64,000 bases of DNA, from NCBI RefSeq assembly GCF_024700885.2, contig NZ_CP117016.1. The stretch is one strand, 5' to 3'. This document shows, piece by piece, positions 16,690-48,090 of this stretch (positions are counted from its first letter, which is position 1; the number at the start of each line of letters is the position of its first letter). The DNA is from Escherichia coli. GTDB taxonomy: Bacteria > Pseudomonadota > Gammaproteobacteria > Enterobacterales > Enterobacteriaceae. The notes under the pieces are model-generated. The model was given only the letters and a program-made list of their open reading frames with translations. It ran no database searches and was not told where the DNA came from. The position numbers and the translations under genes are program-made.

Positions 16690-16806
16690 TGTTTACTCCT
16701 GTCAGGGGGTGGTCACCGCGCAAGATATGCGCAGCTTGAAATATGGTATGGATGTTAACTCAGGTTTAGCTTGGGTAGATAGCAGAAGATGTACTTTAGA
16801 CAAGCA

Positions 16807-17205
16807 TCACACGAACGATTTTGCAAAAGAAGGGTCAAATGGCCCCTCCTTAACTTCCACCATAAGAGCACGCGGAGATAGGCATTCGACACTGTGTATA
16901 TCGCCCGGAGAAAACTCCACAATGCTCATTCCAGTATTATCTCCTGCTATAAATTGCTTTATAACCTCACCATTTCTACCATACAAACAAACCTGAAGTT
17001 GCCCCTCCATAACAATGAACATTTCCCACTGATGAGGAAGTTCGTGATAATGCGGTTCAACATAGCTGCCCTTTACTAATGCAATAAGTAAACGCTGTAC
17101 CTTTTCTTGATGCGAGCCGTGCATCATAAGGTGGGAACGTAAACGTTCCGATTGCCCGGCTTGATCATATAATTCGTCGAGTTGGTCATTATCAATTAAT
17201 CGCAT
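16807..17205 (-). CDS. wbuC: Cupin-fold protein, WbuC family (terminal gene of fnl-type O-antigen clusters)
   Basis: 132-aa ORF with cupin-like motif PHYHELPHQWEMFIVMEG; sits after wbuB next to gnd; 14-bp overlap with wbuB. Confidence 0.6.
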   Translation of the reverse strand: MRLIDNDQLDELYDQAGQSERLRSHLMMHGSHQEKVQRLLIALVKGSYVEPHYHELPHQWEMFIVMEGQLQVCLYGRNGEVIKQFIAGDNTGMSIVEFSPGDIHSVECLSPRALMVEVKEGPFDPSFAKSFV

Positions 17206-18406
17206 TGCATGCCTCCAACCTCATTTCTATCGTCTGTGCCGCAGACTCAACGGAGAATTGTTCTTTCAACAATATATTCGCCCCCGAACCAAGTTGCCGG
17301 CGCACATCAATATCATGCAACATTAATAGCGCAGATTGACATAATTTATCGTCCTCACCATTGACATGGATTAATCCCGCATTATTTTGATTGACAATGT
17401 CGAGCAAATCATTTCCGGCATTTACGCTACCTAAAATAGGTAGCGACTGAACCATATAGCCTAATAACTTACCAGGAAAATTATGGGAAGAGTGTCTAGC
17501 GGAAAGAGAAAACAAGCCGATATCCATTTCCGACAAAATGAACTTAAATTCATCTTGGTTAACCGAGGGCAAATAGGTGAAATTCGTCAATGCCCACTCA
17601 GATGCTAATGAATTAATTAATTCAACTTCATCCCCCTGGCCAATAAATAGGAAATGAGCTTGAGGATATGCTGCCATGTTTCTCACAAGTCGCATCAAGT
17701 TTGTCATGTCCTGTGCATGACCTATGTTTCCACCATAGAAGAAAATGGTTTTATCCTCTAGGCCAAGTCGCTTACGTAGTGGTATATAATCCTTGGGTAT
17801 GATCGTTGGTGTTAGGGATGCCCAATTACGCAAAACTTCGCACGGATAGCCTTTATTATCTTTCCGAAAAACATCAAGATTCTTATCAGACATAAGTCCA
17901 ATACGATTTGCCTGACGATAAGATATTTTTTCAAAAAGACGAAAGTAGCGTTCTATTGGGGAACCAGCATTAAGCATTCCTGCATCAATTACCCATTGTG
18001 GAAACATATCTCTTAAAATAAGATAAGCAGGACATTGGCAACGAGCTTTAATTTTTTTAACTAAAGGCCCCCAGAATATGGAAGGTGAATAATAAATCAC
18101 CCCCTCAAAGGTCTCTTTTTTTACCCATTTTTTGATGGCTTTCCACGCCCGATAGGACAAAAGCGTTTCATTGACCGCTCGCTGAATTTTACTTACATCC
18201 TTGAGCGGCCCGCTTTTAAAACGCCATGTTTTTACCCCCTGAAAGGTATCAAAAGAAATCTCTTCTTGCATGCCCGTACCAGGAGTAATTACCGTAACAT
18301 CGTGCCCACGCTGGATAAATTCTTGAGCAAGTTCATGAAACATTTTTGCACCAACACGAGTACTGTTGGGCAGGTAATCATCTATGATTAAAGCAAGTTT
18401 CATCAA
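17192..18406 (-). CDS. wbuB: GT4-family glycosyltransferase, probable L-FucNAc transferase (WbuB-like)
   Basis: 404-aa ORF MMKLALIIDDYLPNSTRVGAKMFHELAQEF...; immediately downstream of fnlC as in other fnl-type clusters. Confidence 0.65.
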   Translation of the reverse strand: MMKLALIIDDYLPNSTRVGAKMFHELAQEFIQRGHDVTVITPGTGMQEEISFDTFQGVKTWRFKSGPLKDVSKIQRAVNETLLSYRAWKAIKKWVKKETFEGVIYYSPSIFWGPLVKKIKARCQCPAYLILRDMFPQWVIDAGMLNAGSPIERYFRLFEKISYRQANRIGLMSDKNLDVFRKDNKGYPCEVLRNWASLTPTIIPKDYIPLRKRLGLEDKTIFFYGGNIGHAQDMTNLMRLVRNMAAYPQAHFLFIGQGDEVELINSLASEWALTNFTYLPSVNQDEFKFILSEMDIGLFSLSARHSSHNFPGKLLGYMVQSLPILGSVNAGNDLLDIVNQNNAGLIHVNGEDDKLCQSALLMLHDIDVRRQLGSGANILLKEQFSVESAAQTIEMRLEACNAIN

Positions 18407-19533
18407 TATTCTTTCCAGACGACTCTCTTAACATAATCTGTGTAAGAGTGAACAATTCTGACAACTTTATCCGACACATTTGGCATGCTGTAATCACTAA
18501 CCTGACGTAAAAGACGGACTTCACCTCGCGGTTGTGTTGCCAGAATATCCAGCGCTTGTAATACGCGTTCACACTCTAACCCCACCATCATGACGGATGC
18601 TTCCTCAAAGCCTTCCGGACGCTCATGCGCTTCCCGGATGTTTACCGCTGGGAAATTCATGATGGATGACTCTTCAGTGATAGTACCGCTATCTGAAAGC
18701 ACAGCTCGTGAGTTCTTCTGCAAGTGGTTATAATCATGGAAACCCAATGGTTTCAGTAGATTTATATTTGAATGAAATTCAATTCCTTGCTCACGGATTC
18801 GGTTACGTGTCCTTGGGTGTGTGGAGACAATAACTGGAAGATTATATTTTTCAGCAACAGTATTTAGAATGTTCGCAAGCTTTACGAGCTGTTTTGGAGA
18901 ATCAACATTCTCTTCACGATGCGCACTTACTACAAAAAACTCACCAGACTGTAGATTCAAACGCGATAGCACATCTGAACCATCAATTTGGGGCATATAA
19001 TATGAAAGAACCTCAAACATAGGGCTACCAGTTTTTATGATCCGATCAGCTGGGATACCTTCAGCCAAGAGATATTCACGAGCAATATCACTGTAGGTCA
19101 TATTGATATCAGCCGTATGGTCAACAATACGTCTGTTGGTTTCTTCAGGCACGCGTTGATCGAAACAACGGTTACCTGCTTCCATATGAAATATAGGCAC
19201 TTTACGGCGTTTGGCCGGAATGGCAGAAATACATGAATTCGTATCGCCCAATACCAGTATTGCTTCAGGTTTTTCGATTTCTAATACTTCATCTACCTTA
19301 ATAATAACCTGACCAATGGTTTCCGCCGCATTTTTACCCGCTGCATTTAAAAAATAATCAGGTTTTCGAACACCCAAGTCATTGAAGAACACTTCATTTA
19401 ATTCGTAATCATAATTTTGACCAGTATGGACAATAATATGCTCGCAGTATTCATCAAACTTAGCAAGAACCCTCGACAAACGGATAATCTCAGGACGGGT
19501 TCCAACAACAGACATAACTTTTAATTTTTTCAT
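18403..19533 (-). CDS. fnlC: UDP-N-acetylglucosamine 2-epimerase (non-hydrolysing), FnlC-type
   Basis: 376-aa ORF MKKLKVMSVVGTRPEIIRLSRVLAKFDEY...HTGQNYDYELNEVFF (WecB/MnaA fold). Confidence 0.8.
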   Translation of the reverse strand: MKKLKVMSVVGTRPEIIRLSRVLAKFDEYCEHIIVHTGQNYDYELNEVFFNDLGVRKPDYFLNAAGKNAAETIGQVIIKVDEVLEIEKPEAILVLGDTNSCISAIPAKRRKVPIFHMEAGNRCFDQRVPEETNRRIVDHTADINMTYSDIAREYLLAEGIPADRIIKTGSPMFEVLSYYMPQIDGSDVLSRLNLQSGEFFVVSAHREENVDSPKQLVKLANILNTVAEKYNLPVIVSTHPRTRNRIREQGIEFHSNINLLKPLGFHDYNHLQKNSRAVLSDSGTITEESSIMNFPAVNIREAHERPEGFEEASVMMVGLECERVLQALDILATQPRGEVRLLRQVSDYSMPNVSDKVVRIVHSYTDYVKRVVWKEY

Positions 19534-20636
19534 TATAGAGGTCTCGCAATAGTATCGGGCTCATCACGGTTGAAAATTTCATTTGCCCAGAGCATGACTA
19601 TTAATTCATCAGTTCCAATATTTGTAATGTCATGTGTCCAACCAGGAACTGTTTCAACAATCTTAAACTCACCCGATGAAACTTTCAGTTCATATCGCTC
19701 ACCGGTAATCACATGTTCAAATTTAAAGCATGCCTGACCTCGAATGACCAAAAACTTCTCATTTTTACTGTGATGGTAATGTCCGCCACGCGTAATACCA
19801 GGGTGAGCAGTAAAAAATGAAAACTGCCCCGCTGAAGGCGTTTTCAACATCTCACAAAAGACTCCGCGGGCATCCCCATAAAAAGGTACCTTGTACGCAA
19901 ACTTCTCTGCTGGTAAATAACTCAGCCATGTAGAATACAATGCACGGGTAAATCCCGCCCCGACAGCCTCTGTGATCAGGGTGGAACGGCTATTTTTGAA
20001 GCTATAAATTAATTCTGCAACTTCACCAACTGTTGTTGAATAAATTGGTGCAACAACTTTATATCCACTTTCAACCGTCCCAGAGAGAAGAGCTATAGCA
20101 TCAGTACAAACATCATCAATATAGACCAGATTGACTGGCGCTGCTGCATCATTGATAGTAATCTCAATATCATTGGAAATATTGTAGCAAAAAGTTGCTA
20201 TAAAAGAATTATAGTTTGGCTTACACCATTTACCAAAAACGTTTGGATATCTGAAAATATAATACGAAGAACCACTAGCAGCAGCATATTTTTCGACATA
20301 GCTTTCAGCTACAGCTTTGCTAACCCCATAAGCATTATTAAGTTCAGCTTGTATCGAAGAACTTAGCATAATTGGTGTATTCTTACCAATAGAAAGGAGA
20401 TACTCAACTATATGCTTTGTTAAATCACTGTTTCCAGAAATAAACTCATCATCAGTCTTAGGTCTATTGATACCAGCTAAGTGATAAATAAAATCGGCAT
20501 CCTGTAAGCCTTGTTCAAGATCTTGCTTCGTTGATTCTCGATCAATTCTAATAAGATCTTTATAACCAAGTTCCTCAAGCCTCAAACATAAATTACGACC
20601 AATAAAACCATTTGCACCAGTAACTAATATTTTCAT
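19533..20636 (-). CDS. fnlB: FnlB/Cap5F-type reductase of the UDP-L-FucNAc pathway
   Basis: Track ORF 19533..20669; start trimmed to MKILVTGANGFIGRNLCLRLEELGY (Rossmann motif at the N-terminus). Confidence 0.75.
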   Translation of the reverse strand: MKILVTGANGFIGRNLCLRLEELGYKDLIRIDRESTKQDLEQGLQDADFIYHLAGINRPKTDDEFISGNSDLTKHIVEYLLSIGKNTPIMLSSSIQAELNNAYGVSKAVAESYVEKYAAASGSSYYIFRYPNVFGKWCKPNYNSFIATFCYNISNDIEITINDAAAPVNLVYIDDVCTDAIALLSGTVESGYKVVAPIYSTTVGEVAELIYSFKNSRSTLITEAVGAGFTRALYSTWLSYLPAEKFAYKVPFYGDARGVFCEMLKTPSAGQFSFFTAHPGITRGGHYHHSKNEKFLVIRGQACFKFEHVITGERYELKVSSGEFKIVETVPGWTHDITNIGTDELIVMLWANEIFNRDEPDTIARPL

Positions 20637-20637
20637 A

Positions 20638-21672
20638 TCATGAATCCAGATTATATTTTTCACCAGCACGAATTGCTCGAATAAAGGCTAATTTTAGCAA
20701 GAGCTCTTTCATGCCTTCAACATCTAACCGTTGAGTATTATGAGAGTTATAATCTTCTATTTCAGATATTCGGCTATCACCTTGCTCAACATATTTGCCA
20801 TAATTAAGGTCACGAAGATCTGGCGGGACACGGTAATAATCGCCCATATCTATAGCAGCGATCATTTCCTCACGACTAAGTAGAGCTTCATATAATTTCT
20901 CGCCATGACGCGTTCCAATGACATTTACCGGATGGTCAGGAACATTTAGTAATTCCTTTAAAGCAATAGCTAATGTGTCAATAGTTGCTGCAGGTGCTTT
21001 TTGCACAAAGATATCACCATTATTACCATGTTCAAACGCATAAAGAACTAAATCTACCGCATCCTCAAGAGTCATCATAAAGCGGGTCATATTAGGATCA
21101 GTTATTGTGAGTGGCTTGCCCGCTCTAATAAGATCAACAAATAATGGAATAACTGAACCGCGAGATGCCATAACATTCCCATAACGGGTACCACATATTA
21201 CTGTTTTATTGCGATCAACATTACGGGATTTCGCGACCATGACCTTTTCCATCATAGCTTTTGAAATACCCATTGCGTTAATCGGGTATACAGCTTTATC
21301 AGTACTTAGGCATACAACCCTCTTCACTTCATTCGCTATAGCTGCTTCAAGAACATTTTCCGTACCAAGGATATTAGTTTTAACGGCTTCCATAGGATGA
21401 AATTCACATGATGGAACTTGCTTAAGTGCCGCTGCATGATATATAAAATCAACACCGCGAGTCGCATTCAAAATACTACGGTAATCTCTGACATCACCAA
21501 TATAGAACTTTAATTTTTGATTATTGTATTTTTTCCGCATATCATCTTGTTTTTTTTCATCACGACTAAATATACGGATTTCTGCAATATCTGTATCAAG
21601 AAATCTATTTAATACAGCATTCCCGAAAGAGCCAGTACCACCAGTAATTAACAGTGTTTTAGATGAAAACAT
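20638..21672 (-). CDS. fnlA: UDP-GlcNAc 4,6-dehydratase/5-epimerase, FnlA/CapE-type
   Basis: 344-aa ORF MFSSKTLLITGGTGSFGNAVLNRFLDTDIAEIRIFSRDEKKQ... Confidence 0.8.
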   Translation of the reverse strand: MFSSKTLLITGGTGSFGNAVLNRFLDTDIAEIRIFSRDEKKQDDMRKKYNNQKLKFYIGDVRDYRSILNATRGVDFIYHAAALKQVPSCEFHPMEAVKTNILGTENVLEAAIANEVKRVVCLSTDKAVYPINAMGISKAMMEKVMVAKSRNVDRNKTVICGTRYGNVMASRGSVIPLFVDLIRAGKPLTITDPNMTRFMMTLEDAVDLVLYAFEHGNNGDIFVQKAPAATIDTLAIALKELLNVPDHPVNVIGTRHGEKLYEALLSREEMIAAIDMGDYYRVPPDLRDLNYGKYVEQGDSRISEIEDYNSHNTQRLDVEGMKELLLKLAFIRAIRAGEKYNLDS

Positions 21673-21713
21673 AATAACCGAACCTCAAATCATTGACAAA
21701 TATACTCTGGAAG

Positions 21714-22892
21714 CTATTTACTTACTTGACCTAACTTATTAGTAATTGAACTCTGTCCACTAAGTGTTACTCTATTCAAAAACATATATATAAAAGATAG
21801 AAAGAAATAGCCGTTAGATCCTAAAACTAAACCTTTGGTATTGAAAATTATCCCAATTAACATCCATATAATTGCTTGATATGTCATTCCAAATGTCGCA
21901 ATAGAAATAGTAAAGATTAAAAATAAAAAGAGTGTAATAAATGTTAACCCACCGTAATTAAACAGTATAACCCAGCCCATATCCGAACTTTGTTTAATAT
22001 CGGGGATTGATGAAGATATGTTTTGCTGTAATCCAAATATAATATTAAAAAAATCTAAATTACCTACAACAAACACATGTTGCTGTAATAAGATATCCAG
22101 AGTTCTTGTGCCATCTCCAGAAACGAACTCATCATAAAATCGAGGAAAGAACACTGCTCCTAAGCTATAAACTAAAACTCCCAAAATCAATACTGTTGCA
22201 ATTTTTATATTAATATTAAGTCTAGAGCAACCGATACCAATAATGGCTGCAATCACAGCCATGTTAGAATTTACGATTTGAGTCAGACAAATTAAAGTAA
22301 TTAAAGCATAACGCCTTTTCATCATAAAAAATGACATATAGATCATCAAAAATGGTGTCATGAAATTTATTTCACCCGACAACCCAAATCCTCTTACTTT
22401 AGCATTTTGTTCCCAAAGATTAACAGAGTCAGACATACCAAAGAAAGTATATAACAATCTTTTTAACTCTGGACTTATATACATACCAAAAAAAATAACT
22501 ATTTGAACCCAGAGAGAATACACTAATATTCGCTCCATTAATTTCAAGTCACCCTTTATGAATCTATTTACTAAATAATACGCAGGAACAAATGAAAATA
22601 AAAACAACATAAATAATCTAACGGTAAAATAACTTTGAAAAGAATGGCTTTTTTGAAACAAATCGAAAACCAAACAAAATAAAAAAATAATTATGAATAT
22701 AGATAACAGCAACAAATTTTTACGATCTATAGATACCAATCCATTGCCCATAGTAATCATAAAATTACGCACTAAATACATAATACCAAAAAATGCAGGA
22801 ATAAATGCCAAATATAAGAAAGGTATTATCAGCGACAATCTAAAAAAAACAACAAAAAATAATAAAAAAGCCATCAATGCATTATACTTCAT
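21714..22892 (-). CDS. wzy: O-antigen polymerase (polytopic membrane protein)
   Basis: 392-aa very hydrophobic, AT-rich ORF with many predicted transmembrane segments; lies between the fnl genes and a glycosyltransferase. Confidence 0.6.
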   Translation of the reverse strand: MKYNALMAFLLFFVVFFRLSLIIPFLYLAFIPAFFGIMYLVRNFMITMGNGLVSIDRKNLLLLSIFIIIFLFCLVFDLFQKSHSFQSYFTVRLFMLFLFSFVPAYYLVNRFIKGDLKLMERILVYSLWVQIVIFFGMYISPELKRLLYTFFGMSDSVNLWEQNAKVRGFGLSGEINFMTPFLMIYMSFFMMKRRYALITLICLTQIVNSNMAVIAAIIGIGCSRLNINIKIATVLILGVLVYSLGAVFFPRFYDEFVSGDGTRTLDILLQQHVFVVGNLDFFNIIFGLQQNISSSIPDIKQSSDMGWVILFNYGGLTFITLFLFLIFTISIATFGMTYQAIIWMLIGIIFNTKGLVLGSNGYFFLSFIYMFLNRVTLSGQSSITNKLGQVSK

Positions 22893-22941
22893 TGTTTTTT
22901 ACCTTCCATACAAATGTCTTAATAAATGAAGATAGCATCAT

Positions 22942-23928
22942 CTATATATACCAGTTCTTAAGCAAATCATCTGTTTTTGAGGTGCCACGCTCTCCAATAC
23001 CATGTATATATGCCGAAATCAACACATATCTGTAAAGAATTGGGAAATAGAGTTTTTTATTTGCATCTGTTTTTTTTAAAAATTGTATTATTTTTTTAAA
23101 AATAAATTTATTGAAAAATATTGATTGGCATATTTTACTAAACGTTTTGTGTTTACTAAATATTTTCTCAACTAGGAATAATTTTTTATTAGTAGAAAAC
23201 ATTTCAGGCCTTACTTTGCTTAATACATTCATACCATCACGTGCTGTAGCACGAATTTTTTTTGTATATCCTTCTATATCGCCACTGTATTCGTGATGTA
23301 ATATTTTAAAATCAGCAAAAATAATTTTGAAGTCATTTTTTTCAAGTTGCCACCCAAACTCATGATCTTCACAACCATAACCAATAAAATTTTCATTATA
23401 TGAAACTATACCTGATGAAAATGCCTTTCTATCAAGAACACAATTCATTGCGACAAAAGTCCAGGCATTCATAGAGATATCAGGACTATCACTAAACTTA
23501 GGGTGTAAAGAGTTCCTGTAGCGATAGTAATTGCTGGTCTCAATGAGTTCATTTTCGAATCTAACTTCCCCACATAAAACGCTTTTACTATTCATTTTTT
23601 TTAAATAGTTCAGCAACGATGATATATATCCACTTGCGGGTATACAATCATCATCAAGAAATATTAAATAATCCCCATGGGCTAGGGATGCTCCGAAATT
23701 GCGCTTAGCGGAGAGTATATTTTTAGTATGTTGATGGATAATATTAATATTTTTCTTTTTATGAATATTATCAGCAACTACATCATCAATTTCTTTACCA
23801 CTATGACTATCGGAAACAATTACTTCTAGGTGTAGACTATTGTCTTTAGCCTGAGAATCGAGCTCAGAGAGAATCAATTCTAATTGAACTGGGCGTTTCC
23901 AAACAGATATTATTACCGAGATATTCAT
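22942..23928 (-). CDS. GT2-family glycosyltransferase
   Basis: 328-aa ORF MNISVIISVWKRPVQLELILSELDSQ... with DDD motif (YLIFLDDDCIP); 4-bp overlap with wzx. Confidence 0.7.
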   Translation of the reverse strand: MNISVIISVWKRPVQLELILSELDSQAKDNSLHLEVIVSDSHSGKEIDDVVADNIHKKKNINIIHQHTKNILSAKRNFGASLAHGDYLIFLDDDCIPASGYISSLLNYLKKMNSKSVLCGEVRFENELIETSNYYRYRNSLHPKFSDSPDISMNAWTFVAMNCVLDRKAFSSGIVSYNENFIGYGCEDHEFGWQLEKNDFKIIFADFKILHHEYSGDIEGYTKKIRATARDGMNVLSKVRPEMFSTNKKLFLVEKIFSKHKTFSKICQSIFFNKFIFKKIIQFLKKTDANKKLYFPILYRYVLISAYIHGIGERGTSKTDDLLKNWYI

Positions 23929-25169
23929 AATTTATGAGGCCTACATACGGTTTTATTTACTTTAATGAATTGTTTAAGCATTCCCATGCCAACGAAAATT
24001 TCAGCTACAATAAGACTCACAATCGCACCCGTTGCTCCATAATATTTACATGCTGGATAAACTATGCTTAAACAAGTAATAGTTCCTAGGAAAATAGATT
24101 TGAAATACTGTTTTTGCATCCCATTAGGTACTAATACAAGTAACCCGACAACTGTATTAAAACCTATGAATATAGGAAGCAATGTCATTAATTGCATTGC
24201 ACCTGCAATTACTTCACCTTTCATGCCGAATATTAATAATGATAATTGGTTGGCAAAAAGTAAAAATGGTATTGCTAAAGCCATGTAAAAAACAAGCAAG
24301 TATTTAAGAATCATTCTAGATTTTAAGTTTGCAATATATGGATTCTCTCTTTGCAAAATGTTAATTCTTGGATAAAAAGCTTGGACTAATGGTGATGCAA
24401 GTCCAGCCAAACCTTGTTTGATCATGTTAGCTGAGTTAAAGATGCCTACATCAAACTTTCCAGATACGCCACCCAATACAAGAGGGGTCAACATTGTGTA
24501 TGCACTAGTCGCAAGTGTTGAACAAAAAAAATGAAATCCATTTTTTAAAATTACTTGAATTTTCTTTATCGGTGGCCTACATAAAAAAATCTCCTTGATA
24601 ATAAGTAAGTAGGCAACGCCACAGAATGAATACAAAATATATGGCATGCTCAATAATAAGGCACTGATGTACATCGGCGTTGCGGGTTTTATAATTAGAT
24701 AAACTGCAACGACTGCTATGCCTCGTGAAAATAGTGACAGCACAGCCATCACACTCATCATTTCCTTACCTTGCAAAAACCAATTTGGATTGAAAACACC
24801 TGCAATTACGGACAGAAAACCAACACATAACAAAGACTTAACGTCGTTAAAAACATAAAAAAAACAGAGTATTATGAGTATTATAGCTGCAATTAGCATT
24901 AATATAAAACGAGCAAGCACCACACCGCAAAAAAATTCAGAATGGTATTTTTTATCGTTATTTAGTGCTATTTCTCTTGTCCCACTATATCCAAAACCAT
25001 ATTCAACAACCATTAACAACACTTGTATAGTTATCAATGAAAAACTCAGATCACCAAAATTCGATACACCAATGACTCTAACAAGATAAGGAAAAATTAA
25101 TAATGGCAGTAGGTAATTGGCACCCTGACTTATTGCAAGGTAAAGAACATTTAGTTTAGTTTTGCTCAA
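23925..25169 (-). CDS. wzx: O-antigen flippase
   Basis: 414-aa multi-pass membrane ORF MSKTKLNVLYLAISQGANYLLPLLIFPYLVRVIGVSNFGDL... (polysaccharide biosynthesis/MOP-type N-terminus). Confidence 0.7.
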   Translation of the reverse strand: MSKTKLNVLYLAISQGANYLLPLLIFPYLVRVIGVSNFGDLSFSLITIQVLLMVVEYGFGYSGTREIALNNDKKYHSEFFCGVVLARFILMLIAAIILIILCFFYVFNDVKSLLCVGFLSVIAGVFNPNWFLQGKEMMSVMAVLSLFSRGIAVVAVYLIIKPATPMYISALLLSMPYILYSFCGVAYLLIIKEIFLCRPPIKKIQVILKNGFHFFCSTLATSAYTMLTPLVLGGVSGKFDVGIFNSANMIKQGLAGLASPLVQAFYPRINILQRENPYIANLKSRMILKYLLVFYMALAIPFLLFANQLSLLIFGMKGEVIAGAMQLMTLLPIFIGFNTVVGLLVLVPNGMQKQYFKSIFLGTITCLSIVYPACKYYGATGAIVSLIVAEIFVGMGMLKQFIKVNKTVCRPHKL

Positions 25170-25247
25170 TGAAGTGCCCCATATACAACAGATATCATTC
25201 GAGTAACTTATTCACATGAATCAATAAGTTGTTTATTCAGGGCAAGA

Positions 25248-26321
25248 TTACGAAAGCCCGCTCCCCGCAAGAACTGACGCCAGATAGTTTCTGTCCATGG
25301 CTGCTTTTCGCATCTTACGTCTTAACCCTGCCTTGAATACCTTATCATTCGTCAAAATATTAATAGCAATGTGCCGTATCCCTGAAAATAAATCTGCTGC
25401 ATTTCCTCTTCTTATTTTGCAGTCGTCTTCATTCATTACCACGTCCAGACGCCAGTGCAGCTTATTCTCCACGTGCCAGTGGTTTCGGATTGCTGTGGCG
25501 AACTTCTCTGCGGTTAAATCAGCAGAACTGATATAATATCTGACCGTCATTTCTGGCTCTTTCTTTTGTTCTGCTATTATTGACCGAAAGGAGACTGCCA
25601 CGCATAATTTCTTCAGACCTTTCCATTCAAACGTGAAATCAAAAAGTTCATCAGGGACATCGCAAACAATATGAAGACGGATTTCGTCTCTGCCGTGACT
25701 CTTTTCACTCATTGCGTAACTGTCATGCTCTGGATTATTTAATTCTTTCAGTGGAAATTTTTCCTCAAAGGCTTTATTAAGCCGCCCCTGATTTCCTTTT
25801 ACAGCGAATAAATAATCACCGCCCTGTTTTTGTATCTTCTCTGCAATATCTTTCTGGCAACCCATCGCATCAGTTGTGATGATTTTTCCTTTAATATCCA
25901 GCATGTTAAGAAGTTCAGGGATAGCTGTAATTTCATTGGATTTCTCATCCGTCCTGATCTGTCCGATGACCAGACTGTGCATTGTTGAGAACGCACTAAT
26001 GACATGAATCGCTCCCTTGCGGCGACTCTTGTCATAAGAATGCCGGAGTGTTTTTCCATCAATTGCGATGAAGTCTTTATCATCTGAAGAATGGCAGTCA
26101 CGCATCCAGTTAATAAAGCACTCGTGAAATTTTGCAGGACTGATACAGGATACAACTCTGGCAATGGTATCGTGAACAGGAATACCATTTTCAAAATCAC
26201 CATATTGCTTCAAAAAATCGAGATGTGTTTCCCCAAAATCCTCTATATCTTCCCAGCCTTCTGCACCCGAAATAACGGCACAAATAGTCAACAGTAGAAT
26301 ATCCGACAATTTATGTTCCAC
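25248..26321 (-). pseudogene. ISAs1-family (H-repeat-associated) transposase, outer copy, N-terminal ~20 codons separated by the nested insertion
   Basis: 357-aa ORF beginning [11 protein letters not shown] aligns to residue 22 onward of the 378-aa inner-copy ORF; roughly 15 substitutions by eye. Confidence 0.7.
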
Positions 26322-26344
26322 TTTCCAGGCTTGTCAGGGAAAGA

Positions 26345-27481
26345 TTACGAAAGCCCGCACCCCGCAAGGACTGACGCCAGATAGTTTCTGTCCATGGCTG
26401 CTTTTCGCATCTTACGTCTTAACCCTGCCTTGAATACCTTATCATTCGTCAAAATATTAATAGCGATGTGCCGTATCCCTGAAAATAATTCTGCTGCATT
26501 TCCTCTTCTTATTTTGCAGTCGTCTTCATTCATTACCACGTCCAGACGCCAGTGCAGCTTATTCTCCACGTGCCAGTGATTTCGGATCGCTGTGGCGAAC
26601 TTTTCTGCGGTTAAATCAGCAGAACTGATATAATATCTGACCGTCATTTCTAGCTCTTTCTTTTGTTCTGCTATTATGGACCGAAAGGAGACTGCCACGC
26701 ATAATTTCTTCAGTCCTTTCCATTCAAACGTGAAACCAATAAGTTCATCAGGGACATCGCAAACAATATGAAGACGGATTTCTTCTCTGCCGTGATTTTT
26801 TTCACTAATTGCGTAACTGTCATGCTCTGGATTATTTAATTCTTTCAGTGGAAATTTTTCCTCAAAGGCTTTATTAAGCCGCCCCTGATTTCCTTTTACA
26901 GTGAATAAATAATCACCGCCCTGTTTTTGTATCTTCTCTGCAATATCTTTCTGGCAACCCATCGCATCAGTTGTGATGATTTTTCCTTTAATATCCAGCA
27001 TGTTAAGAAGTTCAGGGATAGCTGTAATGTCATTGGATTTCTCATCCGTCCTGATCTGTCCGTTGACCAGACTGTGCATTGTTGAGAACGCACTAATGAC
27101 ATGAATCGCTCCCCTGCGGCGACTCTTGTCATAAGAATGCCGGAGTGTTTTTCCATCAATTGCGATGACGTCTTTATCATCTGAAGTATGGCAATCTCGC
27201 ATCCAGTTAATAAAGCACTCGTGAAATTTTGCAGGACTGATACAGGATACAACTCTGGCGATGGTATCGTGAACAGGAATACCATTTTCAATATCACCGT
27301 ATTGTTTTAAAAAATCGAGATGTGTTTCCCCAAAATCCTCTATATCTTCCCAACCTTCTGCACCAGAAATAACGGCACAAATAGTCAACAGTAGAATATC
27401 CGATAATTTATGTTCCACTTTCCAGGCTTGTCTGTAATCGGGGATAATAGAAATATGTTCCATCAATTTTTTAAGTTCCAT
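26345..27481 (-). CDS. ISAs1-family (H-repeat-associated) transposase, intact inner copy
   Basis: 378-aa [66 protein letters not shown]..., recognised as the E. coli H-repeat protein family (YhhI-like). Confidence 0.85.
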
Positions 27482-27834
27482 TTTGTTCTCCTTAATTATG
27501 TAAGGAGTATTTGATCATGTATAAGCAATAAAAAACAGCTTTATGTAATGAGGAATATCTCAATTTTTAAACATAAAATGCGAATTGTTTAGTACAAAAA
27601 AGCAGCATTACGTGATCTTTCCCTGCCAGGCTTGTCTGTAATCGGGAATAACAGAAATATGTTCCATCAATTTTTTAAGTTCCATTTTGTTCTCCTTATT
27701 TAAGCAAGGAGTATTTGATCATATATAAGCTGTGAAAAACAGTTTTAGGTAATGAGGGATATCTCAATTTTTGAACATAAAATGCGAATTATTTAGTACA
27801 AAAAGTGTACTTCTGATAATCTTTCCCTGCCCCT

Positions 27835-27878
27835 AGACACGCTACCGCCCCTGGCTTTACAGCTACCAGAGCACTGCA
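27835..27878 (-). promoter_or_regulatory. JUMPstart element with ops site (RfaH loading site) for the O-antigen operon
   Basis: + strand cacgctaccgcc at 27838..27849 is the reverse complement of the ops consensus GGCGGTAGCGTG; the surrounding ~40 bp closely match the copy upstream of wza. Confidence 0.8.
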
Positions 27879-28134
27879 TGCATGCCTACGATGTAGCGAG
27901 CGTTACCCACTCGCGCTAAACCCGAAAAATTCAAACGCTAATTGTCTTACCAATCCGCTCTGGAAACAAGGAAAATCCTGGAAAACTTTGACTAAAATCC
28001 TATTGCTAACTCGTTGTTATTCTGATTGTTTATATAAAACAACGGCAGGAAAATTCGCAGCAAATTACTTTCGCCACGAATCTTCACTGCCGTTATAATT
28101 TTCTTATCAACCGTTACATTCGGTCAGATTTTCA

Positions 28135-29028
28135 TTATTCGCTTAACAGCTTCTCAATCCCTTTACGGAACTTCGCCCCTTCTTTCAGGTTGCGTAGTCC
28201 ATACTTCACAAATGCCTGCATATACCCCATTTTTTTACCGCAGTCGTAGCTGTCACCTGTCATCAGCATGGCATCAACGGACTGTTTTTTCGCCAGTTCA
28301 GCGATGGCATCAGTCAGCTGAATACGCCCCCATGCACCAGGCTGAGTGCGTTCAAGTTCCGGCCAAATATCTGCAGAAAGCACATAGCGACCAACGGCCA
28401 TGATGTCTGAGTCCAGCGTCTGCGGCTGATCCGGTTTTTCGATGAATTCAACAATGCGGCTGACTTTACCTTCACGGTCCAGTGGTTCTTTGGTCTGGAT
28501 GACCGAGTATTCAGAGAGGTCACCCGGCATACGTTTTGCCAGCACCTGGCTACGGCCCGTTTCATTGAAACGCGCAATCATGGCAGCAAGGTTGTAGCGC
28601 AGCGGGTCGGCACTGGCGTCGTCGATCACAACGTCCGGCAGTACCACGACAAATGGATTGTCACCAATGGCGGGTCGTGCACACAAAATGGAGTGGCCTA
28701 AACCTAAAGGTTCGCCCTGACGCACGTTCATAATGGTCACGCCCGGCGGACAGATGGACTGCACTTCCGCCAGTAGTTGACGCTTCACGCGCTGTTCAAG
28801 GAGAGATTCTAATTCATAAGAGGTGTCGAAGTGGTTTTCGACCGCGTTCTTGGACGCGTGAGTTACCAGGAGGATTTCTTTGATCCCTGCAGCCACAATC
28901 TCGTCAACGATGTACTGAATCATTGGCTTGTCGACGATCGGTAGCATCTCTTTGGGAATCGCCTTAGTGGCAGGCAACATATGCATCCCAAGACCCGCTA
29001 CAGGAATAACTGCTTTTAAATTCGTCAT
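28135..29028 (-). CDS. galF: UTP--glucose-1-phosphate uridylyltransferase-like regulatory subunit GalF
   Basis: Track ORF 28135..29040; start trimmed to [45 protein letters not shown]. Confidence 0.9.
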
Positions 29029-29202
29029 TATTTCATCCACCTGTAAAATGGTTGCTGAATTATAGCTTGTTCGATTTTTTTCGCCAGCATCAATTACCCT
29101 GAATTGATTACTGAATTACTTGTGATGTTACGCCGCTTCGTTGTGGATTGCAGTAGCATTGTTCCTAAGTATGGCTCCATTTTTCCAGGAATGGTCGCAA
29201 AT

Positions 29203-30597
29203 CTACTCCCTCCGTTCTGGCAATCTAAAGTTAATCTTCTCCACATTAACAATATGGTGATTAATCCTGTCGATATCGACGGAGATTTGTCCTTTTTCAT
29301 TCACCGCATGAACATTTGCAAGAGACAGCAGTGTTTCTTTTTTCGCCATAAACACGCCGCGAACGTCTTTGCGCATGTCAAAGTTCATGCTCAATGCGGG
29401 TCCAACTGAGGATTCCTGCATCACATTGATATTTCGCATAAAAAGATGTTGCGGTTTGTTGTGTAACTCCAGCGACGCACGCTTCATCTCAATGTTAGTC
29501 AGCGCCACAAAGGAGACAGCATTCCCGGCGGAGATTTGGATGCCGCGCAATTTATAAGCAAGATGAGTATTATCCAGTTGAATATCATTCACTCGGAAAT
29601 TCTGCGGTATCGAGAGATATTTGCCTTTAATTACCCCATAGCCGATTAACATCCCGGCACTATTAATCATTTCAATATTATCAATCACAAAGTTGTCACA
29701 ACCATAAATAGCAACTGTGGCGTTATCAATACCTGCTTTCTTACTGAAATCCGGCGTGATATTACGAGCTTTGATATTACGGATAACAAAATGTTTACCA
29801 TTTTCAACATGGATCAGTTGCCGACAATCTGATCCCGTGATATTCGCAACGACAAAGTTTTTCACTGCCTGGTTTTCCGGATAATTATTATCGTAAGTAC
29901 TTCCTGCCAGTCCTATGCCAATACCCCAGTTGATTTTGCCGTTAGTACAGTTGATGCGCTCGATGACATGGTCGGATATCAAAATGTCGCGATCATTGAT
30001 TGCTACATTCCATTCAATGGCGTCGCCCTGTAAGTCGCTGAACTTACAATTGGTGATGTTGGCACCGATAATCTGGTTATGAAATCCCTGGCGTAAAATG
30101 GCGTAATTAGCGTGGCTGACGGTCAGGTTATCGATGGTCAAGTTGCGCATGACGCGTTTATTTTTGCCGCCGATATAAATCTGCGTTACCGGGCCAAAAC
30201 CGCTCATCGCCAACCCTTTGATGATGCAGTCAGAACCGCGCACATCCAGGGTGATGTTATGCATACGGCCGCCCTTCTCCCCTGTCACCTGGCTGCCGTC
30301 TTGTAAGACAAAACGCCCTCTGCCGTTGCCGCGCAGGCTTCCAAGGATGTGCAACGTTTTGCCAGGAGGAATGAAGATGCCGGTGTTGATATTTTCACAA
30401 ACGAATCCGGCAGGCACGACGACCGTTTGCCCTTCGCTGAAGGCTTGTTTAAATGAGGCGATCCAGTCGTGTGGGTTGTAGTCGTTAATGTTAACGATTT
30501 GTCGGGCGGGAAGTGCACGGGCGAAAGGGGTATGGAGGAAGGCAAGCGCCGAGCTTGCCGTCAGGAAGGTGCGTCGGGAGAGTTTTTTAAATGGCAT
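29203..30597 (-). CDS. wcaM: Colanic acid biosynthesis protein WcaM
   Basis: 464-aa ORF with twin-arginine-like signal ([21 protein letters not shown]); last gene of the wca cluster by synteny. Confidence 0.85.
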
Positions 30598-30607
30598 ACG
30601 TTCTCCT

Positions 30608-31828
30608 CTATAAAGCCTGCAGCAAGCTGGCGAGTTCTCGATTGATCACCTGCTGGTTAAAATCGTGTTCGACTTTTTCGCGCGCACGTTTGACAACCGT
30701 AGTAAGTTCGTCGGTGTCCAGTTGGCTAAACGCCGCCAGTCGTTGCGCCAGTGCACAGGCATCGTTCTCAGGCACCAGCCAACCGGATTTATCGGCCTCC
30801 ACCAGTTCCGGTATTCCGCTGTGCAGAGTAGAAACAACCGGAATGCCAACCGCCATCGCTTCCATTAGCGCCACCGGAATACCTTCCATATCGCCATCCG
30901 CACCTGTAACCGATGGCAACAGGAAGACATCCGCGTCATCGAGCATCGCTTTCACTTCATGGCTCGGTTTAAAGCCCGGCATCTCTATCACATCTTCCAG
31001 TTGATATTGTTCGATGAGGGTGCGCAGGCGTCGTTCCCACGGGCCAATGCCGAGGATGCGATAGCGAAATGCCACGCCCTGCTCTTTCAACTGGCGGCAG
31101 GCTTCAATCGCCACATGCAGGCCTTTTTTCTCGGTTAAGCGTGCGACGGAGATGATTTCCAGCGGCGTTGCGGGCGCTTTCACCGGACGCGGGCTAAAAC
31201 GCGTCATGTCCACGCCCATGCGCGATACGGCGATTTTTTCCCTCGGGCAGCCCATTTTTTGCAGCCTTCCGGCCCACAGATTGCTTATTGGTAACATCAG
31301 GTCGCCACGGCGAAACAGTTGTTGATATTCGGGAGTGTAGTGGTTGAGCACTTCCCGACTGGAGATATCAATACCGTGGAAGATAGTGGCAATTTTGCCG
31401 CGAATGACACCCAGTTCGCGTAGTTTTGCCGCGGTTACCCCAGCAGGGCCAAAATGAGCGATAAACACATCGGCATGAAACGGTGTTGCGACCTGGCCGC
31501 AAATGGCAGACAAAATCAGGTTCCGCGACTCAGCACCATAGCGTTTGAGGTTAAGCGCCTGCCAGGTATTTTTACGATGAATACCGCGCAACGTCTGGCT
31601 GGCGCGGTGGCGCAGTTTCGCCACTTTGCCTTGTGGCTCGTCCTGTAACCAGCGGGTTCTGGCGGCAAGGTTATATTTTGTCCATGCCGCGTGGGTGTTT
31701 TGTGTGTCGCCTTTTTGCAGCGCGACAATCTCCACCTCAAAGCCCATATCAATAAACGCGGTAATTTGATTGAGGACGAAGGTTTCCGACGACAGTGGAA
31801 ATTTCAGTAAAAAGAAGCCGACCTTCAT
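30608..31828 (-). CDS. wcaL: Colanic acid GT4 glycosyltransferase WcaL
   Basis: 406-aa [35 protein letters not shown]... Confidence 0.85.
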
Positions 31829-33105
31829 TTCGCCTCCCCGATGCGTTCAAGCACAGATTTCACCATCTGCATTCCCGTCTGACGTTCGCGACTGACGGCT
31901 TCGTTAAGTCGCGTGTTCAGTGCCGGAAGCTGGCCTAAGGTATCCGCAACCATCGCTTGCAGGCTGCCGTCTAATAAATGACGGATATCAATTGCCATCT
32001 CTGGTAGCCCCAGTTGTTGCATAATCCCGGCGGATTTATGTTCATAGTTGATGGCAATCGCCGGAGTGGCAAAGTTCATCGAGATAATGGCAGAGTGCAG
32101 GCGCGTACCGACGGTGAGTTCACAGGCCCCCAGAATTTTGCCCATTTCCAGATCGTTGAGTTCATCCATCACCACGTGGTAACGGGCAGGATCGCTGATG
32201 TGCTGGCGAAGATTGAGCGCCACCATGCGGTCGTCTTTGTTATAGCTGTCGATGCCCGTACAGGTGGAAAGCGCAATCACCTGATACCCTTCGTCGAGAA
32301 TGCGATTGACCACCCCGGCAAAGGCTTTTTCATACGCTTGCTGAGTGGTGCCGAGACGTTTGTCGAACGGTGCCAGTTCGCGCAGGGTAATTGCTACCGT
32401 TTTCTGTTGTGCGGCAACGTCCAGCCAGTGTTGAACGGCATAGCTGGCGGTGAAGTCTTCTGTGTGGTGATCGACCAGCCACGCAGTATCGACGCCATGT
32501 TCGACTTTTGCGGTGGTGATATTGCTGCGTTTCATCAGTTCAAGGCTGACCGATTCGCGCAGGATCAGCGCGTCGCAGTGACCAAAAACGTAGTTCGCCA
32601 GTTGGTTAAATTGCTCATCCTGGAATGGACCAACGCTGTGACCAATCATAAATAGCGGCTTTTTCGCCATGAAAGTGCAAAGCGCGTGTTCAAACTGCGG
32701 CACGCCGTAGAGATCGACAAAAAACGATCCGCCGACCTGAATAATGGCGTCGTAACCTGACAGCAGGCGCACGAAGTCAGTGAATCCCTGGGCGATGGCG
32801 ATATTACGCAGCTTGCCAGTGTCGGTGACGCGTGAGAGCAATACCTGATGCTGATAGCGGCGACGGAGGACTTTTTTAACGCGCCCGACAACGCCCGCCG
32901 CGCTGTTGTGTTTTTTCATTTGCAGGAACAGCGGATCGCCCATTACCGGGCGGTTGAGCAGCCAGGAAGAACTGACCGGATAGCGGCTCATCACGTCCAC
33001 TTCGGCGTGTGGATTGAGGATGTTGATGGCATCAAGTAAGCCGCGCAGGATGGCGCTGTCGCCACGATTGCCGCAAGTGTGGTTGCCCAGAATAAGTAAT
33101 TTCAT
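31825..33105 (-). CDS. wcaK: Colanic acid pyruvyl transferase WcaK
   Basis: 426-aa ORF MKLLILGNHTCGNRGDSAILRGLLDAINI... Confidence 0.85.
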   Translation of the reverse strand: MKLLILGNHTCGNRGDSAILRGLLDAINILNPHAEVDVMSRYPVSSSWLLNRPVMGDPLFLQMKKHNSAAGVVGRVKKVLRRRYQHQVLLSRVTDTGKLRNIAIAQGFTDFVRLLSGYDAIIQVGGSFFVDLYGVPQFEHALCTFMAKKPLFMIGHSVGPFQDEQFNQLANYVFGHCDALILRESVSLELMKRSNITTAKVEHGVDTAWLVDHHTEDFTASYAVQHWLDVAAQQKTVAITLRELAPFDKRLGTTQQAYEKAFAGVVNRILDEGYQVIALSTCTGIDSYNKDDRMVALNLRQHISDPARYHVVMDELNDLEMGKILGACELTVGTRLHSAIISMNFATPAIAINYEHKSAGIMQQLGLPEMAIDIRHLLDGSLQAMVADTLGQLPALNTRLNEAVSRERQTGMQMVKSVLERIGEAK

Positions 33106-33179
33106 TATGACCTCAAAAGGAGTTCTAAATTGCGTCGGTGCTATGGTTGATGATTAAGAGTTAAACCGGTGACATATTC

Positions 33180-33266
33180 AAAGCTGTGCTCGATCAGTCC
33201 CCTCGCCCCCTGGGGAGAGGGTTAGGGTGAGGGGGAAAATGCGCACGACCTTACGGGGATAGCCAT
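33180..33266. repeat. G-rich palindromic intergenic repeat (boxC-like)
   Basis: tcccctcgccccctggggagagggttagggtgagggggaaaatgcgcacgaccttacggggatagcc lies between wcaK and wzxC. Confidence 0.4.
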
Positions 33267-34745
33267 TCACCCCGCCCGTAAAAGCATTTTCATTTTTTCG
33301 CTGCGACAAAACTGACGCTTCACTTCCACCACCAGCGGATGGCGCGACAGCACAATCATCACCACAAACGCCAGCACGCCCGCGGCTATTTGCACCGCCA
33401 GCAGCATCCCCAGCGCCAGTTGCCCTTTCAGCAATAGGCCCAGCGCATAACTGACCACCAGTGTCGGCAGCGAGAGATAAAACGGCAGCCACAAACTCAG
33501 GATGTACTGACGATAACTGGAACCGAGCACCGGTTTAATCATCACGAAATAGCTCAGAATGGTGTTGATAATCTGCACCAGCAGGAAACCAAGCGTGACG
33601 CCGATTGCGCCCGCCATCTGCCCACCAATAACAATCGCCGGAATAAACATAAAGGTTTTGAATACGTTGAATTTAAAGCTGATATCGACCCGCGCTTTCG
33701 CCATCAGCAGCGAACCAATCGGGTTCCCCACTGAGCGCAGCAGCCCCACCACACACAGCAATTGCAGCACCGGAATAATGCTGTTCCACTTCTCACCAAA
33801 GACCAGCGGTACACAGTTATTCGACACCACCATCAGCCCCAGCAGCGCCGGAAAGTTGATAATCCCCACTACCGACAGCAGCTTGTAGAAGTTAACGCGC
33901 AGCTTTTCGGTGTCGTCCTGAATTTTGGCAAATGCCGGAAACAACACGCGGGTGATGATTGGGTTCAGCTTCATCGGCGGCACAACGGCCACGTTGTACG
34001 CCAGGTTGTATCCCCCTGCCACGCCCGCGCCGAGAATACGCGCCAGCACCAGCGTTGAAAGGTTGGTATTGAGATAGTTGATGATGCTGTCCGCCGTCAG
34101 CCAGGCACCAAAGCGTAAGTTCGGTGCCACCGACGCCAGCGAGAAATGCAGACCGGGGCGATAAATTTTGCGACCAAAGTAGCCAAACAGCAGCGTTCTT
34201 ACCGCACTATTGACCAGATAACCGAGGATCGCGGTCATCGCCAGTGGCCAGAAATGGGCGCTAACCACCGTAAAAGTGAAGCCCGCCAGCACCGCGCTGG
34301 TTTCGATCATGCCGATTTTGTTGAACTCCAGCTCTTTTTGCATCAACGCGCGGAACTGCTGTCCGTGGGGGATCACCACAAACGCCAGCGACAATGTTTT
34401 AATCAACGGTGCCAGGTCTGGGTTGTTCAGCACGTCACCAATGAGATCACTCAACAAAAACACCGCCACGCACACCACAAGCCCCAGCCCGACGTTCAGC
34501 CAGTACAACGTGGTAAGTTCCAGGTGACTGATTTCTTTTCGCTGAATAATCGAGTTAGCGATACCGAAGTCAGAAAGCGTATCTGCCAGCGCGATAATCA
34601 CCAGCGACACGGTAAGCAGGCCGAACTGGTGGTTGTCGATAATCCGCGCCAGCACGGTCATCTGCACCAGCCCGAGGCCGATGATGATCACCGTGGCAAT
34701 CGCCGACCACTTCGCGCCGCTGATGGTTTTTTCACGTAAGCTCAT
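33267..34745 (-). CDS. wzxC: Colanic acid repeat-unit flippase WzxC
   Basis: 492-aa polytopic membrane ORF MSLREKTISGAKWSAIATVIIIGLGLVQMTVLARI... Confidence 0.85.
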   Translation of the reverse strand: MSLREKTISGAKWSAIATVIIIGLGLVQMTVLARIIDNHQFGLLTVSLVIIALADTLSDFGIANSIIQRKEISHLELTTLYWLNVGLGLVVCVAVFLLSDLIGDVLNNPDLAPLIKTLSLAFVVIPHGQQFRALMQKELEFNKIGMIETSAVLAGFTFTVVSAHFWPLAMTAILGYLVNSAVRTLLFGYFGRKIYRPGLHFSLASVAPNLRFGAWLTADSIINYLNTNLSTLVLARILGAGVAGGYNLAYNVAVVPPMKLNPIITRVLFPAFAKIQDDTEKLRVNFYKLLSVVGIINFPALLGLMVVSNNCVPLVFGEKWNSIIPVLQLLCVVGLLRSVGNPIGSLLMAKARVDISFKFNVFKTFMFIPAIVIGGQMAGAIGVTLGFLLVQIINTILSYFVMIKPVLGSSYRQYILSLWLPFYLSLPTLVVSYALGLLLKGQLALGMLLAVQIAAGVLAFVVMIVLSRHPLVVEVKRQFCRSEKMKMLLRAG

Positions 34746-48012: not shown

Positions 48013-48090
48013 GCTTGCCGGATGCGGCGTGAACGCCTTATCCGGCCTACGGGGCGGTGCGAATGCAGGCGTCGTTATTTCGCATCCGAC
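48013..48090. repeat. REP/BIME palindromic units between wcaA and wzc
   Basis: gccggatgcggcgtgaacgccttatccggcctac followed by a second unit ggtgcgaatgcaggcgtcgttatttcgcatccgac that overlaps the wzc stop. Confidence 0.75.

Follow-up and report, generated by a model that had tools for sequence, protein, structure and literature searches.

The locus analyzed here is the spacer between two adjacent genes of the colanic acid operon within a 64-kb window, by which we mean the whole stretch of Escherichia coli DNA under study (64,000 nucleotides). Both genes lie on the minus strand. The upstream gene in the operon, wzxC, is a 492-aa ORF for the colanic acid flippase (33267-34745, with its stop codon at 33267-33269), and the downstream gene, wcaK, is a 426-aa ORF for a pyruvyl transferase (31825-33105); both names were taken from the RefSeq annotation of matching regions in other E. 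coli genomes. The flanking ORFs delimit a spacer of 161 bp (33106-33266), and the wcaK ribosome-binding site, GAGG at 5 nt before the ATG, lies within the sequence peculiar to this spacer allele. On the plus strand the spacer contains the 37-mer CCCCTCGCCCCCTGGGGAGAGGGTTAGGGTGAGGGGG (33199-33235), which occurs once in the window and falls inside the interval 33180-33266 that a sequence-only reading had singled out. The motif is intergenic, with the wzxC stop 31 bp away on one side and the wcaK start 93 bp away on the other. We also observed that the wca genes adjoin a low-GC stretch (16001-32000, GC content of 0.41 versus ~0.51 elsewhere in the window), which may be an O-antigen cluster, acquired by horizontal exchange, on the downstream side of the colanic acid operon.

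The sequence-only reading described the feature as a G-rich palindromic repeat between wcaK and wzxC. The repeat is indeed present in the spacer; however, it is not a simple palindrome but a series of three blocks, namely, a C-rich arm followed by two G-rich arms, with CCTG and TTA between them. Complementarity of the C block to either of the G blocks extends to 9 of 10 positions. In 9-nt-block notation, and always on the plus strand, pattern matching placed the C-rich arm (block 1, CCCTCGCCC) at 33200-33208, with its mismatched position at G 33205, and the first G-rich arm (block 2, GGGAGAGGG) at 33213-33221, while the second G-rich arm (block 3, GGGTGAGGG; 33225-33233) was placed by pattern match and fold. 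Loop 1, read from the sequence and the pattern match, is the CCTG at 33209-33212 and is the sole variable part among the exact cores of other genomes. Loop 2 is the TTA at 33222-33224, which defines type A under the published type definition (PMC4666352). In the predicted fold-back DNA hairpin, block 1 pairs with block 3, and T 33228 stands opposite G 33205.

The core is flanked by a left arm (ACATATTCAAAGCTGTGCTCGATCAGTC; 33172-33199, plus strand), delimited by flank comparison and by paralogous BLAST matches that begin at 33185-33197, and by a right arm (GGAAAATGCGCACGA; 33234-33248, plus strand), into which paralogous matches reach as far as 33239-33248. Part of the left arm, ...CTCGRTCRGTC, is common to the other copies compared, namely, those of K-12 pstA-pstB, Pseudocitrobacter, Cedecea, and Pseudomonas. 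In the right arm, GCGCAC is inverted relative to GTGC at 33186-33189, giving an outer 4-bp stem that was seen in the DNA fold, and tails like ...GCGCAC are present in other enterobacterial copies. Because paralogous matches span 33185-33248 at 90-95% identity, and from the flank comparisons, the element is placed at roughly 33172-33248. One further symmetry was observed, an 8-nt perfect inverted repeat (GAAAATGC/GCATTTTC; 33235-33242 and 33284-33291, 41 nt apart) that spans the wzxC stop codon and has one arm directly abutting the core; it may be due to chance.

Since both genes lie on the minus strand, the mRNA bears the C-rich complement of the motif and the G-rich strand is the template of transcription. 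From the negative GC skew of the plus strand across the window, we infer that the G-rich strand is also the leading-strand template, and it would therefore not be the strand most exposed in single-stranded form. The same strand contains four G-tracts of at least 3 nt with loops of 1-7 nt, which is the definition of a G-quadruplex motif (GGGG-AGA-GGG-TTA-GGG-TGA-GGGGG; 33212-33235, plus strand).

The three-block layout is that of BoxC, a repeat that was later redescribed as the PIT element and then as TMECO (Bergler 1992; Hoyne and Maher 2000; Holder et al. 2015; PMC4666352). The published BoxC consensus, 5'-CCCTCNCCC N3-6 GGGNGAGGG N3 GGGNGAGGG-3' (PMC4666352), was matched exactly and only once in the window, at 33200-33233 on the plus strand, and not at all in 100 dinucleotide shuffles. 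With its TTA loop 2, the window copy is of type A, and it belongs to the common "mm" subtype, which has one mismatched triplet (CCCTCGCCC versus GGGAGAGGG). In the fabI-ycjD spacer of K-12, next to fabI (envM), the archetypal copy has the sequence CCCTCGCCCCTCTGGGGAGAGGGTTAGGGTGAGGG; it follows the same pattern, and loop 1 is its sole difference from the window core. When a 66-nt query was used to search 5,426 complete E. coli genomes, relatives were found in 5,419 of them, at a median of 16 places per genome, and 79,668 of the 79,700 places were chromosomal. K-12 has 23 strict copies (PMC4666352). Moreover, the window copy is already catalogued in Supplemental Table S8 of Holder et al. 2015, as no. 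62 (APEC O1) and no. 293 (BL21-Gold) (PMC4666352), and these entries agree in sequence and coordinates with the genome hits found here. In APEC O1, the wzxC-wcaK copy is one of only two strict TMECO copies genome-wide. The element and this particular copy are thus already known, and the finding amounts to the correct recognition of a known, catalogued repeat copy.

These data bear out the suggestion of the sequence-only reading that the motif may be a boxC-type intergenic repeat, to which the exact consensus match, the many genomic copies, including the archetypal fabI/envM one, and the published listing all testify; the search for copies genome-wide, which it had proposed, showed that the motif is far from unique to this site. 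It had also judged the motif to be unlike the REP units elsewhere in the window, and this was borne out as well, in that the REP core motif (GCCKGATGCGRCG...CGYCTTATCMGGCCTAC) is absent from 33106-33266 and has window hits at 48034 and 61677-61724. In addition, the spacer matched no Rfam 15 family; the best hit, to an unrelated eukaryotic family, scored 18.1 bits (E value of 0.57), below the gathering score of 40. The comparison with the K-12 junction revealed a 275-bp spacer made up of REP/BIME units, without similarity to the window spacer. The motif is GC-rich and imperfectly palindromic and sits at the place of the K-12 REP units, which is what a chance palindrome or a divergent REP/BIME unit might look like. 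However, none would be expected by chance, near-identical copies are numerous in each genome, and the spacer has no REP consensus and is unrelated to the K-12 REP units in alignments. Copy number, pattern statistics, and the REP-motif scan together rule out either identity, to which we give a negligible probability.

BoxC does resemble REP/BIME elements in general character, as both are short, GC-rich, imperfectly palindromic, interspersed intergenic repeats, and REP units fill this very junction in K-12 and, judged by spacer lengths, in most other strains too. The two differ in that their sequences are unrelated, BoxC has three blocks where REP has a single hairpin, and BoxC is present in ~20 copies compared with several hundred for REP/BIME; furthermore, REP has a partner transposase (RAYT/TnpA-REP) and known protein binding, neither of which is known for BoxC. 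Within its own family, the window copy agrees with BoxC/PIT/TMECO in its exact consensus match, type A loop, common mismatched triplet, intergenic position, multiple copies, and published record, and it lies within an operon, as does the K-12 pstA-pstB copy. It departs from the K-12 copies in two respects: loop 1 is 2 nt long, whereas K-12 type A copies mostly have 3 nt (in the 10-nt-block notation of Table 1 of PMC4666352), and the window copy is solo, whereas many enterobacterial copies, and those at five sites in K-12, are accompanied by an inverted type-B partner.

We compared the junction across E. coli by using the spacer plus 150 bp of each gene as a query, which matched 4,645 of 5,426 genomes. 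The allele carrying BoxC was found at full length in 274 of the 5,426 genomes, a 5% minority. Other spacers measured ~70 (empty), 145, 179, 275 (K-12), 371, 468, 564, and 661 bp, and the wzxC-wcaK spacer was thereby seen to be a length-polymorphic hotspot across the species. From 179 bp upward the lengths form a ladder with steps of ~96 bp, which fits variable numbers of REP/BIME units, with the unit structure verified for the 145-, 179-, and 275-bp alleles only. The ~70-bp allele represents the empty state, and the REP units are inserted between ...GTTCGTTGC and CGGAACCG... The BoxC allele is not the empty spacer with BoxC added. Its entire spacer, including the wcaK ribosome-binding region, is divergent and can be aligned with the common spacer near both gene ends only. 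Since the whole spacer is divergent, the window allele is not a simple insertion; a clean insertion boundary at this locus was sought against the empty, O26, O157, and K-12 alleles, and the attempt failed.

Sequence identity was 100% for the 161-bp allele in ATCC 11775 and BL21(DE3) and for the 66-nt element in E. coli C, REL606, and APEC O1, genomes in which BoxC place counts are 3-4 versus 18. Because identical sequences occur in strains with widely differing BoxC place counts, the allele has probably been moved between E. coli lineages by recombination, as judged from these sequence comparisons.

The sequence-only reading proposed that the element could influence mRNA stability or polarity inside the operon, and this proposal found no support. 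It can be framed as a cis-acting RNA element, in which a GC-rich hairpin protects the upstream wzxC message from 3'-5' exonucleases or attenuates read-through into wcaK. Such a role gains some appeal from the position of the motif within a transcribed operon spacer, from a short GC hairpin that is possible on the mRNA-sense strand (in the CCCUCUCCCC/GGGGCGAGGG region), and from the REP elements that occupy the same junction in K-12. REP elements stabilize upstream mRNA. However, no terminator-like site and no sigma-70 promoter-like site was detected on either strand in 32900-33500, and the mRNA-sense hairpin is followed by ACUGAUCG, without a U-run. The mRNA-sense spacer fold was no better than that of shuffled sequences (z of 0.11), and the single-stranded DNA folds were likewise unexceptional (z of -0.2 to -1.5; ViennaRNA). 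Of the two strands, the G-rich one folds better, since its mismatch is a G-T wobble; on the C-rich strand, that of the mRNA sense, the mismatches are more severe. As Watson-Crick folds are no better than those of shuffles, there is no structure-based case for an RNA element. Furthermore, the junction tolerates an empty spacer or 1-6 REP/BIME units in natural strains, and ~95% of E. coli genomes carry other spacers, including the ~70-bp one without any repeat. Published tests of BoxC elements, in the summary given in PMC4666352, found neither promoter nor terminator activity and no effect on RNA polymerase. We therefore regard a cis-acting RNA role as very unlikely.

A functional role could instead be sought in the DNA itself, with a triplex or G-quadruplex that stalls polymerases, drives rearrangement, and is kept for adaptive variation by the capsule/O-antigen region. 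ViennaRNA models Watson-Crick hairpins only, and not triplexes or quadruplexes, so that the z values above understate the non-B potential. The plus strand has four G-tracts together with the C-G-G layout of a triplex, and near-identical type A "mm" oligonucleotides, of which loop 1 is the sole difference, form a stable triplex in vitro with a Tm of about 74 C, as established by CD and NMR (PMC4666352). NMR of full TMECO oligonucleotides indicated a triplex and not a G4 (PMC4666352). TMECO is associated with variable intergenic regions, and its loci vary more than control loci do (PMC4666352); the wzxC-wcaK junction is itself highly polymorphic, and two other BoxC loci show indels ending in 7-9-bp direct repeats. 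However, most of the polymorphism at this junction consists of the ~96-bp REP/BIME ladder, and because that ladder sits in alleles without BoxC, BoxC is not its cause. DMS footprinting in vivo gave no sign of a triplex (PMC4666352), and the G-rich strand would be neither the lagging-strand template nor the nontemplate strand of transcription. On balance, a selected non-B DNA function at this locus seems unlikely.

The reading that we prefer, and hold to be very probable, is that the window motif is a solo type-A BoxC copy that sits passively in the transcribed wzxC-wcaK spacer, carried on a recombination-borne allele, and that it most likely has no required function in the operon. BoxC is a roughly 60-bp noncoding interspersed repeat with a 36-nt core of one C-rich and two G-rich arms, whose G-rich strand, when single stranded, can fold back as a hairpin or, as published in vitro, as an intrastrand purine-motif triplex. 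Here it would have arrived within the divergent spacer allele, moved between E. coli lineages by recombination, and it would be selfish or a relic in its behavior, with local polymorphism through indels and recombination as its chief effect. Alongside the observed identity, copy number, distribution, and allelic replaceability of the element and the observed absence of terminator-like and promoter-like signals, we infer both the neutrality of this copy and its arrival by recombination. The GC-rich hairpin may still exert a modest effect on mRNA decay or on wcaK translation. For the window itself, the motif can be annotated as a BoxC/TMECO repeat, which matters little there, and the wzxC-wcaK spacer is better treated as a hypervariable, dispensable junction than as a regulatory site. 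This is of use when capsule and O-antigen regions are compared and when the wca operon is engineered in B strains, which have the BoxC allele, as opposed to K-12, which has the BIME allele.

Other copies were also examined for signs of mobility. Where type A and type B copies form an inverted pair, of about 100 bp, the pair ends in 21-nt terminal inverted repeats, CCCTCACCC(CGG/TAA)CCCTCTCCC. No direct repeat of a 7-mer or longer was found across the window copy, and no consistent target-site duplication was found around the window copy and about 50 other copies. At pstA-pstB, within the pst operon, K-12 has a 92-bp BoxC-carrying segment that many genomes lack. The 8-bp direct repeat AACCGTGT marks both of its ends, and the 8-mer occurs a third time just after the core. 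At yjdP-phnP, a pair consisting of a degenerate B copy and an A copy is represented by nested deletion alleles. In O157 a truncated A copy is retained, with the junction in TCGCCCCTC, and in other strains the whole element is missing, with junctions in CCCTC-type (CCCTCNC) microhomology. Deletion between short repeats accounts for the indels at both loci no less well than insertion with target duplication does, and, because the direct repeats at the indel ends include element sequence, the two directions are indistinguishable without an outgroup. The fabI-ycjD region was also considered as a source of an empty site; strains without ycjD carry an eefRABCD replacement with no BoxC at the junction, and this region is therefore uninformative for mobility. 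BoxC thus resembles MITEs in its A/B pairs with terminal inverted repeats and in its presence/absence polymorphism, and differs from them in having no convincing target-site duplication and no known classical transposase.

The distribution of the core extends well beyond E. coli. The exact 36-nt core, with loop 1 left free, was scanned for in GTDB representatives, one genome per species, and was found in at least 120 stretches. Among the matches listed, it occurs in many Enterobacteriaceae, Pseudomonas, and Stutzerimonas, in the alphaproteobacteria Devosia, Azospirillum, and Asticcacaulis, and in metagenome-assembled genomes labelled Planctomycetota (Kuenenia), Chloroflexota, Desulfobacterales, Verrucomicrobiales, Gastranaerophilales, and a Doudnabacteria (candidate phyla radiation) genome. 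The sequences that flank the core are lineage specific and are repeated within each genome, which argues against contamination and for a core that is a module inside different longer repeats. In Enterobacter, the core is found inside a longer conserved repeat (...ggctgagggatccccacaaaat...cactaaaccatt-core-aacatacggctctggtggtcattccgttcacc...), and in Pseudomonas it is preceded by a left arm, conserved over about 45 nt (tttcaggtcgatgtagctc.aagaacaactcggtcagtc); by their sequences, these repeats look like MITE-sized families built around the same core. A looser pattern has been reported in 262 proteobacterial genomes (Holder et al., PMC4666352), and we found no discussion in the literature of the exactness of the core across phyla. 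Such exact conservation across phyla argues for some constraint on the sequence and against BoxC being junk as a family.

To our knowledge, BoxC has been without a known partner protein or means of spread since 1992. Candidate partner genes were approached from the repeat and from the gene. In the repeat-first approach, ORFs within 2.5 kb of 125 cores were clustered, and, among the matches listed, one specific small family adjoined the core at seven loci from several unrelated lineages. This recurrent family is DUF559 (PF04480; E values of 1e-34 to 1e-50), and its members are 43-64% identical to E. coli YcjD. In the alignment, D49, E60, and D62 are invariant, which makes them candidate catalytic residues of YcjD. 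The two largest neighbor clusters, judged by their representative sequences only, were ABC-transporter ATPase-like and a spurious GC-rich ORF-like group, and they were set aside, the DUF559 cluster alone being specific. When every ORF in the 1.05 Mb of core-containing loci was searched with a profile, seven proved to be DUF559 ORFs. Every one of the seven lay at most 68 bp from a copy of the TMECO pattern, and six had copies on both sides. At the stop codon of K-12 ycjD there is a degenerate type-B-like hairpin, and the archetypal BoxC lies 168 bp downstream of the gene.

In the gene-first approach, DUF559 loci were taken from IMG/VR regardless of any repeat. Strict TMECO copies were present on both sides in 2 of the 30 closest loci, and half-site clusters were present on both sides in five more. 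In most of the remaining loci, the gene is bracketed by inverted copies of analogous repeats that differ in sequence and share the layout of a C-arm, a loop, a G-arm, a hairpin or short loop, and a second G-arm. Significant flank-to-flank repeats (z above 4.5) were detected for 13 of 16 DUF559 genes, compared with 0 of 32 control positions in the same loci. YcjD-like DUF559 genes are therefore systematically bracketed by BoxC-type repeats. We found no paper that links DUF559, ycjD, or COG2852 with BoxC or with any repeat.

This bracketing suggests, by analogy, a partnership like that of REP and RAYT. In the REP-RAYT/REPIN system, too, a single-copy small nuclease gene is bracketed by a structured repeat that also has many solo and paired copies in the genome. 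In contrast, the REP-RAYT/REPIN enzyme is an HUH Y1 transposase, whereas here it is a Vsr-like PD-(D/E)XK nuclease (DUF559) whose action on the repeat is putative, and no such gene stands beside the window copy. DUF559 falls in one group with the T/G-mismatch nickase Vsr and the homing endonuclease I-Bth0305I (PMC3424549), and the closest solved structure to YcjD is 3HRL. We propose, tentatively and as a possibility just short of the probable, that BoxC-type three-block repeats are the cognate DNA elements of YcjD-like DUF559 nucleases. On this proposal the nuclease would have the repeat as its target, the conserved T:G mismatch in the fold-back hairpin being one candidate site, or it would spread or homogenize the copies. 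The autonomous unit would be a DUF559 gene bracketed by two repeat copies, and solo or paired BoxC copies would be nonautonomous derivatives of it, with spread or homogenization through nuclease-initiated recombination, possibly following nicking at that mismatch. The window copy has wzxC and wcaK as its neighbors, with no YcjD-like DUF559 gene within about 100 bp, and would rank among the solo derivatives and not among the gene-bracketing copies.

Within E. coli, phylogroups A, B1, and C carry ycjD where the eefRABCD island would otherwise stand, and B2, E, and F lack the gene (PMC12817139); in the loci examined here from strains without ycjD, the island was likewise found in its place. Published numbers of strict TMECO copies are 1-2 in CFT073, UTI89, UM146, IHE3034, JJ1886, and APEC O1; 6-7 in IAI39, CE10, and one neighboring entry; 11 in O157:H7; 13-15 in 042 and UMN026; 13-23 in UMNK88, BW2952, and K-12; and 29-30 in IAI1, O26:H11, and W. 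Under the phylogroup assignments that we assume for these strains, B2-type strains, with eefRABCD in place of ycjD, have 1-2 strict copies, and K-12-like and B1-type strains with ycjD have 13-30. It is suggestive that BoxC copy number tracks the presence of ycjD by phylogroup, a correlation that is confounded by phylogeny. The gene has been re-acquired in ST69 and ST182.

If BoxC-type repeats are indeed the cognate elements of YcjD-like nucleases, this would explain why an exact 36-nt noncoding core is found across phyla and why BoxC loci are prone to rearrangement. It would likewise explain why B2 strains, which have no ycjD, retain only 1-2 copies, and what YcjD does. The bracketing of DUF559 genes thus provides a concrete hypothesis for E. 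coli K-12, which has both ycjD and 23 BoxC copies.
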